Positions 12,081 to 28,209 of a stretch of DNA of 33,259 nucleotides are shown piece by piece (within the stretch, counting starts at the first letter, position 1; each line of letters opens with the position of its first letter). The stretch lies in IMG/VR virus record IMGVR_UViG_3300011425_000009, positions 1 to 33,259 of that record; one strand, written 5' to 3'. The notes under the pieces were generated by a model, which had not been told where the DNA came from, ran no database searches, and worked only from the letters and a program-made list of their open reading frames with translations. Source of the stretch: a virus. Lineage: Duplodnaviria > Caudoviricetes. The translations under genes and the position numbers were made by a program.

Positions 12081-12926
12081 ATGGTAGATGAACATAAATG
12101 TGGTGGTTGTTGTCCAGGGCCACAAGGCAACATGGGGCCACAAGGGCTTCAAGGCGTCCAGGGCGTCCCTGGAAAAGATGGCGCACAAGGCCAAGCTGGT
12201 CAACAAGGCCTACAAGGCGTCCCTGGTGATAAAGGCAATCCGGGTGACAAAGGCGACCAAGGCCTACAAGGCCTACAAGGTTCTCCCGGTGTCCAAGGCG
12301 CACAAGGCGTACCAGGACAACAAGGCCAACCTGGATTAAATGGTCAAGTGGGGCCACAAGGCGTCCCTGGTGCACAAGGACTCCCAGGACAACAAGGACT
12401 ACAAGGCATACCAGGCGATTGTGTTGAATGCCCATGCCATTGTGACGCACCAGAATTTGCAGAAGTATTTTCTTCACTCCCTCAAACATTAGCTGCATCT
12501 CCTGGCGCATTACTAGCAGGTCAAGTTGTTTTATTAGAAAATACACTTTTTGCAAGTCCTAGCATTGATGTTTCTCAAGCGGGTGTGAATGGAAAAATCA
12601 TCATCAATAAAGCGGGCTGGTATGATGTTTATACAGGCATTTGCGGCTATTTAAATCCAATTGCTTCGCCACTTCCATGCTGGACATTATCACTCTTTAA
12701 AAATGGCGTTTACGTAGCGGGCTCAACATTTGCTAACCAAACCATTTCTCCTGAACAAAAGTCGAACGAAATTGTTGCAGACGTATTTGTTCATTTTAAT
12801 GTTGGAGATGTGTTGGAACTATGCAATACAAGTACCGCAATTGTTAATATGGCCGCTCCAACATTAGGCACTAACTCCCCGGCAAACTCTGCCTATATGA
12901 AGCTAATTTTATTACAAGCTGATTAA
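12081..12926 (+). CDS. Collagen-like protein with BclA/C1q-like C-terminal domain
   Basis: About 33 uninterrupted Gly-X-Y triplets flanked by CGGCCP and CVECPCHC; beta-rich C-domain (IIINKAGWYDV...VGDVLEL); SD GGAG. Confidence 0.85.
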   Translation: MVDEHKCGGCCPGPQGNMGPQGLQGVQGVPGKDGAQGQAGQQGLQGVPGDKGNPGDKGDQGLQGLQGSPGVQGAQGVPGQQGQPGLNGQVGPQGVPGAQGLPGQQGLQGIPGDCVECPCHCDAPEFAEVFSSLPQTLAASPGALLAGQVVLLENTLFASPSIDVSQAGVNGKIIINKAGWYDVYTGICGYLNPIASPLPCWTLSLFKNGVYVAGSTFANQTISPEQKSNEIVADVFVHFNVGDVLELCNTSTAIVNMAAPTLGTNSPANSAYMKLILLQAD

Positions 12927-27309: not shown

Positions 27310-27338
27310 TTGACAGCGATAACAGTTATTGTTATCAA
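27310..27338 (+). promoter_or_regulatory. Promoter of the RNA array with embedded palindrome
   Basis: TTGACA-17 nt-TATCAA with TG extension; GATAACA-5-TGTTATC overlaps the spacer and -10. Confidence 0.55.
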
Positions 27339-27343
27339 ATACC

Positions 27344-27411
27344 GTCCTCTGCTTCCTTTAATTACTTAAATTTAGTCCATTTTTTAAGCTTTGATGTAAA
27401 CGGCAGAGGAC
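27344..27411 (+). ncRNA. Array unit 0: leader stem-loop
   Basis: GTCCTCTGC/GCAGAGGAC 9-bp closing stem at the predicted start site, followed by the linker TAGTTTAT. Confidence 0.5.
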
Positions 27412-27422
27412 AAATAGTTTAT

Positions 27423-27522
27423 GCGGGTCTAGGTTTGTCCTAGTATGAATAGATTGGAGCCATTATTTACTAGTTAAACTTGGCTATCCTAATGGGGACT
27501 TAAAACGTCCTCACCCGCTCCA
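27423..27522 (+). ncRNA. Array unit 1: tRNA-like RNA
   Basis: GCGGGT/ACCCGC plus TCCA; T-arm-like GGGGAC-ttaaaac-GTCCTC; CTAGG/CCTAG hairpin; long AT-rich middle arm. Confidence 0.65.
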
Positions 27523-27528
27523 GTTTAT

Positions 27529-27600
27529 GGCTGACGATACTTATGGAAAAGAGAAGTACGCCGTGCGAGACGGTATACCATAGGGAAAATAGGCGCACTA
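27529..27600 (+). ncRNA. Array unit 2: structured RNA without a clear acceptor stem
   Basis: Bounded by linkers; ends GGCGCACTA, similar to unit 3; CTTATGG/CCATAGG and CCGT/ACGG stems. Confidence 0.4.
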
Positions 27601-27606
27601 GTTTAT

Positions 27607-27699
27607 GCGTCGGATAACCTCAGAGGTGAGGGGGATTTAGACGGCCTGCGCAGGAAGTCTAGATTGACCACAATGGGTGAAAATCCCTCCGGCGCACCA
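27607..27699 (+). ncRNA. Array unit 3: tRNA-like RNA
   Basis: GCGTCGGA/TCCGGCGC plus ACCA; D-like CCTC/GAGG; extended arm GATTTAGAC/GTCTAGATT; T-like GGG-tgaaaat-CCC. Confidence 0.7.
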
Positions 27700-27704
27700 G
27701 TTAT

Positions 27705-27814
27705 GGGGTATGCCCGTAGGCAACGATGGGCTGGACCTAGATTGTGAGTGTTGCACTATAAATTCAGACGCCAGGTGACTCACAACGTAATAGGTGGCAA
27801 GTCATACCCCACCA
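27705..27814 (+). ncRNA. Array unit 4: RNA with tRNA-like ends
   Basis: GGGGTATG/CATACCCC plus ACCA; CCCGT/ATGGG, ACCTA/TAGGT and TTGTGAGT/ACTCACAA stems; no T-arm. Confidence 0.65.
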
Positions 27815-27820
27815 GTTAAT

Positions 27821-27890
27821 GGCAATCGTCGTCTAAATGTGAGGACGCCTACTATAGTGGAAATGCTGCACACCACGCAGTCGATTGCCA
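27821..27890 (+). ncRNA. Array unit 5: compact tRNA-like cloverleaf
   Basis: GGCAATCG/CGATTGCC; D-arm CGTC/GACG; truncated arm CTAC-tata-GTGG; T-arm GCTGC-acaccac-GCAGT. Confidence 0.65.
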
Positions 27891-27961
27891 AAAGGATTAA
27901 TACAATTCTGTTATCAACTTTGCTATAGTAAATTTTATTACACTTTTAATGGAACATTAAA

Positions 27962-28075
27962 ATGCCTGTATCAAAAAAAGAAGTTGGAAAAATGATTAAG
28001 AAAAGTGAAAAAAAAGACGATAAGAAAGACAATAAAAAGTTTAAATTAAAAGACAAGAAAAAAGGCAAGAAGTAA
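27962..28075 (+). CDS. Lys-rich microprotein
   Basis: 37 aa MPVSKKEVGKMIKKSEKKDDKKDNKKFKLKDKKKGKK; TAATG-coupled to the next ORF. Confidence 0.55.
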   Translation: MPVSKKEVGKMIKKSEKKDDKKDNKKFKLKDKKKGKK

Positions 28076-28209
28076 TGCCTCCGTATAAATCTGCTAAACA
28101 ACGCAGGTTTCTTCATGCTAAACACCCAAAAATAGCTGCCAAGTGGGACGCAGAATATGGTAGTAAGATTGTTAAACCTAAAAAAAAGGCCAAATCTAAA
28201 AAGAAATAG
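28075..28209 (+). CDS. Small basic conserved phage protein
   Basis: 44 aa MPPYKSAKQRRFLHAKHPKIAAKWDAEYG..., a motif I recognise from uncharacterised phage proteins. Confidence 0.65.
   Translation: MPPYKSAKQRRFLHAKHPKIAAKWDAEYGSKIVKPKKKAKSKKK

Follow-up and report, generated by a model that had tools for sequence, protein, structure and literature searches.

A phage array of small non-decoding RNA units with tRNA-type or 5S rRNA loop-E ends

The closest described system is found in the tRNA region of phage T4, which encodes RNA C (rnaC, 139 nt) and RNA D (rnaD, 119 nt), also known as the species 1 and 2 RNAs. According to two papers, both RNAs are expressed and their function is unknown (PMC9697503, PMC3014915). 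T4 rnaC has a GTTCGAATC T-arm, CCA follows T4 rnaD, and a function for phage stable RNAs of this type has been missing for decades. The C4 RNA of phage P1 and the CI RNA of phage P4 are non-tRNA substrates of RNase P and act as single antisense RNAs. Engineered tRNA and 5S display scaffolds are used to stabilise inserts. In addition, the report by Mukai et al. describes irregular-tRNA polycistrons containing 8/4 and 9/3 allo-tRNAs, which possess long acceptor stems, anticodon loops and a 12-bp branch, are assigned to Acidobacteria and are in some cases thought not to serve translation (PMC5389517). With respect to processing, a further paper gives G+1/C+72, N-1 and RCCA as determinants of RNase P and indicates, for pre-4.5S RNA and model hairpins, that cleavage requires no more than a hairpin end carrying G+1 and RCCA (PMC11143913).

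The array described here resembles T4 RNA C and RNA D in being composed of small non-decoding RNAs. However, T4 has two fixed RNAs together with eight tRNAs, whereas in the phage arrays tRNAs are few or absent, unit classes are numerous and inserts can be swapped. The window array has no sequence homology to rnaC or rnaD, and the loop-E-like motif of one of its units is absent from the T4 tRNA region. Similar to the irregular-tRNA polycistrons of PMC5389517, the phage arrays are polycistronic and contain long-acceptor tRNA-like RNAs; in contrast to the allo-tRNAs, one phage class is of the 8/5 form, with an insert that replaces the anticodon arm and no anticodon loop, and the other phage classes are not cloverleaves. 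Unlike C4 and CI, the phage units occur in multi-unit arrays, and no antisense target in their own genome was found. The phage units would hold inserts as the engineered scaffolds do, in a natural and multi-unit version. The array is real, and represents a known but unexplained kind of phage RNA in a new form.

The window, which is the whole stretch of DNA that was analysed, is a virus record of 33,259 nt that is 97% complete. It encodes a podovirus-like phage with a head-tail adaptor, tail tubular proteins, a major head protein and a terminase; a tail-fibre-like gene (12081-12926, plus strand) is oriented against the structural operon. The array DNA occurs in freshwater sediment sequencing runs, of which three may be its source. 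An AAA_24/Sipho_Gp157/SSB-like trio precedes the array, which extends from 27344 to 27893, and two tiny lysine-rich ORFs of 37 and 44 aa (27962-28209, plus strand) come directly 3' of it, with a TG-TATAGT site near 27925 ahead of them. ORFs similar to this lysine-rich pair flank the arrays in the related loci L011, L017, L027 and L061.

Sequence and folding together divide the array into six stem-closed units (u0 to u5) joined by five near-identical linkers (Table 1), in line with the initial annotation of this DNA, and all six units begin with G, as stated there. The same annotation had found no credible ORF, and the array indeed contains none of 50 aa or more, the longest having 48 aa. The GC content is about 0.5 in the array compared with a window mean of 0.38, and the fold z-score of the whole array is -2.5. 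The check for ordinary tRNAs or a known RNA family proposed earlier gave nothing: ARAGORN called 0 genes in the window, and Rfam 15 gave 0 matches at the gathering score (tmRNA, Y RNA, C4, GOLLD and others), the best match in E-value mode being at 0.59. The full three-way junction of 5S rRNA with its domains beta and gamma (RF00001) had no match in the window. Moreover, the window units have no ARAGORN or RF00005 score, and none of their folds has a 5-bp stem bearing a 7-nt anticodon loop together with a TTCRA T-loop, so that they do not qualify as canonical tRNAs. Among 20 related loci, Rfam returned only 4 tRNA matches and no RF00001, and its E-value mode on 17 loci gave tRNAs and four sub-threshold matches. 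Such arrays are overlooked completely by the standard tools ARAGORN and Rfam.

Table 1 Coordinates of the array and its control region in the window
Feature	Position	Strand	Fold z-score (+ strand)	Description
Candidate sigma-70-type promoter	27310..27338	+		TTGACA-17-TATCAA (from sequence); TTGACA at 27310, TATCAA at 27333
Perfect palindrome	27318..27336	.		GATAACA-N5-TGTTATC; covers promoter spacer and -10 box
Five AU-rich linkers	27412..27820	+		(A)GTT(T/A)AT; pattern starts 27415, 27521, 27599, 27698, 27813
u0	27344-27411	+	-4.3	Long AU-rich hairpin, 10-bp closing stem, no CCA
u1	27423-27522	+	-2.6	tRNA-like; GCGGG/CCCGC acceptor, U73, CCA; 6-bp T-like arm, enlarged central loop
u2	27529-27600	+	-1.6	5S helix IV/loop E handle, GACGATA 27533-27539 and GAAAATA 27585-27591; 45-nt folded insert
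u3	27607-27699	+	-3.3	8-bp acceptor-like stem and ACCA; 5-bp D-like hairpin, long central arm, TGAAAAT T-loop hairpin
u4	27705-27814	+	-1.4	Acceptor-like stem and ACCA; tetraloop hairpin, long arm with AATTCAGAC loop; no T-arm
u5	27821-27893	+	-3.2	Short 8/5-class member (GGCAATCG/CGATTGCC); minimal insert, degenerate T-loop

The promoter proposed earlier is present as far as its two hexamers and their spacing are concerned, and its +1 would be G27344 or a base close by. A consensus promoter scan of the window missed it owing to the absence of the final T from the -10 hexamer, so the promoter remains only plausible. The palindrome that overlaps it is the sole perfect copy in the window, with one further half-site at 27909, and could be a repressor operator. 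Each linker stops immediately 5' of the G+1 of a unit. The linker motif [CT]AGTT[TA]?ATG occurs five times in about 420 nt of the array compared with four times in the remaining window on both strands, a clustering with a Poisson probability of about 1e-10 for a motif picked after being seen. RNase E cuts AU-rich linkers in tRNA operons, and the linkers of the array are candidate RNase E/RNase P leaders.

Acceptor-like stems with NCCA close three of the units as first described, u1 with 6 bp and TCCA (UCCA in the RNA), u3 and u4 each with 8 bp and ACCA; u5 is a cloverleaf of the 8/5 type that ends in AAAA and has no encoded CCA. T-like loops of 7 nt are formed in u1 (TTAAAAC), u3 (TGAAAAT) and u5 (ACACCAC). 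The description of the array as tRNA-like thus suits these three units, and does not suit u4, which has no T-arm, the long hairpin u0, or u2, which carries a 5S loop E. L222 contains a conventional tRNA, with a TTCCA loop, that has the acceptor end of u1, and by our own reading of the L222 sequence this acceptor would be of the tRNA-Gly type. Homologues of the u1 scaffold are present in L011 and L272, with 75% column identity and a CTAG-TAA loop in common. No homologue of u0 was detected by nhmmer in L003-L085, and the L003 array likewise begins with a hairpin starting with GTCC. The fold z-score of u3 is -3.3 on the plus strand versus -0.7 on the minus strand; full homologues were found neither for u0 nor for u3, and both fold well.

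The covariation test suggested in the initial annotation was possible for u4, whose homologues in L051 and L208 give 33 pairs with 0 broken and 7 changed on both sides, in a count that covers three sequences only and uses a structure derived from those same three. The AATTCAGAC loop at the end of the long arm is also conserved in these homologues. For u5, the 8-bp acceptor is identical to that of an 8/5 class (8-bp acceptor, 5-bp T-stem), which keeps the acceptor, D and T arms and has the T-loop TGCAATT in 12 of 21 rows. The acceptor and the T-arm in this class are separated by 36-180 nt, with u5 as the shortest member, and ACCA is encoded in one of the 21 rows. The pair counts of the 8/5 class are no test of covariation, because the parser selects for pairing, and one of the 21 rows is a chance match.

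These tRNA features raise the alternative, which we regard as unlikely, that the main job of the units is to serve as decoys for tRNA-directed defence enzymes or binders, such as CCA/acceptor-end toxins, synthetases or EF-Tu. Toxins that act on tRNA 3' ends exist, and the Gly-type acceptor and U73 kept by u1 and its two relatives would suit such a role, as would the arms and the T-loop retained in the 8/5 class. However, CCA is frequently not encoded, the most frequent unit consists of a 5S arm closed by a stem of 4 bp, and dozens of different conserved inserts would be needless for a tRNA-end decoy. Anticodon nucleases in particular would be poorly served, since a 7-nt anticodon loop is retained in none of the units, which makes the earlier suggestion of anticodon-nuclease decoys unlikely.

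The commonest unit type is represented in the window by u2, a unit for which the initial annotation had offered no explanation. By sequence, its ends are demonstrably the arm that helix IV and loop E form in bacterial 5S rRNA. The motif GCCGACGATAC..GGGAAAATAGG matched about 650 stretches of GTDB genomes; a regex detected a 5S context in 116 of the 120 matches listed, and of 20 matches drawn from these 120 and checked with Rfam, 18 were 5S rRNA above the cut-off and the other two lay at contig ends. The heptamers GACGAUA/GAAAAUA and the flanking GCC/GG of the loop-E units are identical to those of bacterial 5S rRNA (RF00001), and many bacterial 5S genes also have their C-G and then U.G inner pairs. 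The loop-E units thus possess the symmetric 7x7 loop, the 5S sequence and helices on either side. In contrast to 5S genes, in which 15-18 nt separate the two halves of the motif, the 59 phage units measured have an interior of 31-79 nt, and they contain this arm alone, with tRNA-type flanks and no 5S score. The exact variant is found mostly in Dehalococcoidia and Oscillospiraceae and also in Armatimonadota and some CPR genomes; the E. coli 5S arm has the same layout and differs at two of seven positions per strand. The 5S loop E or the bL25 of the phage host may not match the handle, which weighs against our preferred explanation. A loop-E motif outside a 5S gene was also seen in a Cytophagia MAG (L169). 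The closing stem of u2 itself is slightly worn (GGCG C ACTA compared with the consensus GGCC ACCA). The CUGACGA..GAAA of u2, which we took to be a possible hammerhead motif, was rejected as such, since this U is paired within the closing stem and most homologues have C in its place.

Pooled searches with a relaxed regex yielded 73 distinct loop-E interiors. Both heptamers are exact in 53 of 59 distinct phage units. The inner pairs were left free by the search patterns, and the first of them is kept in 57 of the 59 units, as C-G, U-A, A-U or G-C, compared with a mean of 42.4 in shuffles and with none of 2000 shuffles as high, in a test that ignores relatedness. The second inner pair is kept in 59/59 and is U.G in 38, like in 5S arms, and the third is kept in 46/59. 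The inner flanking pairs of the loop-E units covary. The folds of the inserts are weak on average (median z -0.57; 6/59 below -2), which speaks against the explanation preferred below; several inserts recur between phages with altered stems.

The symmetric bacterial loop E is the binding site of L25/TL5/CTC (PMC4408793), and we consider it reasonably likely that the phage loop-E handle would, as predicted from its sequence, bind the bL25/CTC of the host. L25 is encoded in none of 24 carrier records, so such a binder would be host-made. The exact heptamers in 53/59 units, together with the U.G kept in 38/59 while adjacent pairs vary, would suit sequence-specific recognition. Alternatively, loop E could be a mere rigid helix-like spacer derived from 5S rRNA that completes an RNase P substrate and binds no bL25. 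Loop-E-type motifs recur in other RNAs, and four pairs, seven non-canonical pairs and the inner pairs would produce a rod of the length of the tRNA top. Yet a plain Watson-Crick helix would do for this purpose, and neither the exactness of both heptamers nor the retention of the U.G next to freely changing pairs would be needed, which makes the spacer decidedly improbable.

The loop-E units and their companions are spread over small uncultured phages, of which the complete ones are 33-40 kb. Of 3 matches to a linker-pair pattern, L003 is a true independent array, L004 and L005 being dropped by eye as chance, and two L003 units carry GACGATA..GAAAATA in common with u2. This motif was found in 29 viral stretches, 5 of them (L012, L015, L016, L028 and L034) judged by eye to be chance, and a flank-free loop-E pattern in 32; the 34 metagenome stretches with the motif are partly from the same phages as the viral set. 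L039 and L046 were kept from a set of 16 matches, together with the duplicates L037, L042 and L043, while most others were dropped, and L041 is an ordinary tRNA cluster. From a set of 14 matches, 12 were dropped and L208 and L218 were kept, the latter being the L051 contig; L224 was dropped elsewhere. The smallest arrays consist of one unit, and the largest, in L051, has about 14 by an eye count over 1.5 kb. The terminase of the window is shared by 2 of 11 complete carriers and the portal likewise by 2 of 11, which implies that the units cross phage lineages. In addition, run X10 contains u2 with its insert (1 difference) set in other flanks, and L208, which was reached via u4 alone, also carries a loop-E unit. 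At the level of sequence, these comparisons establish that inserts and units are exchanged between phages, and the array units very probably constitute a real conserved non-coding RNA family. The window array has no BLAST match among 50,697 phage records (cultured phages), no plasmid match was found, and the strict pattern found 0 prophage copies in GTDB genomes.

Several other features were observed in the related loci. The array of L051 (1540-3040) belongs to a phage whose terminase has 61% identity to that of the window; one 49-nt piece of this array matches 10 Klebsiella/Serratia jumbo-phage records, and it has no other cultured-phage match. On the minus strand of L046, a contig of 102 kb, lies a GC-rich phage array whose irregular tRNA-like units carry the same CCAGTTTATG linker and include one of the form GCGGG..CCCGCTCCA. 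L010 (upstream of a loop-E unit, minus strand) and L022 (downstream, minus strand) share a unit class with CTGATGAG..CGAAA, which we take to be a hammerhead-like core, and with a second conserved hairpin; this class has no Rfam hammerhead match. L003, L013 and L018 have in common a conserved 88-nt GGGG(A/T)GAG unit with an 8-bp acceptor and a T-like arm, whose invariant AAAGTAAGCGTACGATGAAA loop resembles a bulged-G motif. Another class, found in L011, L052, L019, L081, L010 and L031, combines internal loops of the form GAGATC/GATGAC..GGATGTA with a hairpin, GATC or GAGC, that ends in AATA, and is loop-E-like yet distinct. In L018, a sub-threshold match to the cspA thermoregulator (1953-2200) lies upstream of the array, and the adjoining frame resembles a cold-shock protein by eye.

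The flanks of the loop-E units were compared in a flank-free scan of 33 units. G+1 is paired in 33/33, U-1 is present in 31/33 and A-2 in 29/33; at the 3' side a purine discriminator is found in 32/33, RCC in 19/33 and RCCA in 13/33. These flanks match the RNase P determinants at U-1 and at the paired G+1; the encoding of RCCA in a minority of the units, like that of ACCA in one row of the 8/5 class, counts against our preferred explanation. Moreover, tRNA-Gln/Tyr genes were called in the array loci L039, L020 and L066, and in L039 the tRNA-Gln is directly followed by the window-type linker. The arrays thus combine non-decoding RNA, tRNA-type ends and a tRNA-like operon, as in the T4 RNA C/D type, and judging from the processing signature the units are probably released as discrete RNAs. 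The earlier proposal of non-decoding RNAs with tRNA-type ends is borne out, as the units are under structural selection and are neither ordinary nor decayed tRNAs.

The RNase P signature would fit equally well if the units were cis-acting processing or stability elements of the t-element-like kind, with RNase P cuts that shape or protect neighbouring mRNAs and with the RNAs as by-products. Solitary loop-E units often begin a few bases past a stop codon (L006, L013, L023, L025, L030, L057 and L076), a position that also suits a cis role and counts against our preferred explanation. However, one cut site would be enough for cis-acting elements, yet there are 6 units here and about 14 (by eye) in L051; the inserts and loops are conserved between phages, and RNase P has no need of the loop-E identity. 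We therefore assign a low probability to a cis role.

The variable interiors between fixed handles are reminiscent of guide arrays, and the initial annotation had considered the units as possible scaffolds for antisense loops. For antisense pairing with the phage's own genome, the longest match was 11.1 nt in the own genome compared with 10.95 nt in other genomes (40 units and 12 genomes, 3 of which were covered in part), and that suggestion is not upheld. General rRNA mimicry by the inserts was likewise rejected, since 99 units, a few of them mis-parsed across two units, showed no excess of k-mers matching E. coli 16S/23S on either strand. In addition, u2 and u5 look partly worn in the window genome, which speaks against our preferred explanation and would be expected if the array were debris of decayed tRNAs. 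Such decay is contradicted by the covariation, namely the compensatory stems in u4 and in the loop-E class. Antisense guides or tRNA debris are together very improbable.

The explanation that we prefer, with slightly more confidence than doubt, is a cassette whose small non-coding RNA genes are interchangeable; each RNA would consist of a handle cut by host tRNA enzymes and a folded insert, and would act by protein binding in preference to base-pairing. The array would be transcribed as one precursor, which would either start at the 27310 site or arise when transcription of the SSB-like gene continues into the array. After cuts in the AU-rich linkers, RNase P would cleave directly before G+1, on the 3' side of A-2U-1, and the 3' ends would then be trimmed or their CCA repaired. 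The handle would have one of two forms, a tRNA-type end or the copied loop-E arm of 5S rRNA, and bL25/CTC bound to loop E would protect the RNA, titrate the protein, or both. The earlier reading of the array as a means of releasing RNAs through tRNA-shaped ends is in agreement with this explanation for the tRNA-type ends, and falls short for the most widespread type, in which the loop-E arm of 5S rRNA encloses an insert that can be swapped. The inserts might be protein-binding decoys or aptamers against host factors, for example translation or defence proteins, a role for which we see a little less than an even chance. A further extension, which is speculative and rather doubtful, is a natural RNA display in which a host-processed, bL25/CTC-recruiting loop-E handle would present dozens of folded aptamers, traded singly between phages and each aimed at a host protein, for example in defence or translation. 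Such a display would be an RNA counterpart of the arsenals of small anti-defence proteins.

In the literature outside subscription papers, no description was found of a phage mimic of an rRNA protein-binding site or of such a family. The motifs are absent from six supplementary files of PMC10690425, a source of which three further files may hold unnamed candidates. In the loop-E family, the handle has a specific partner that can be tested, the predicted bL25/CTC, and more than 70 natural inserts are available. If the proposed explanation is true, the loop-E units would represent the imitation by phages of a site at which rRNA binds a protein, and a natural counterpart of the tRNA/5S display scaffolds of biotechnology.
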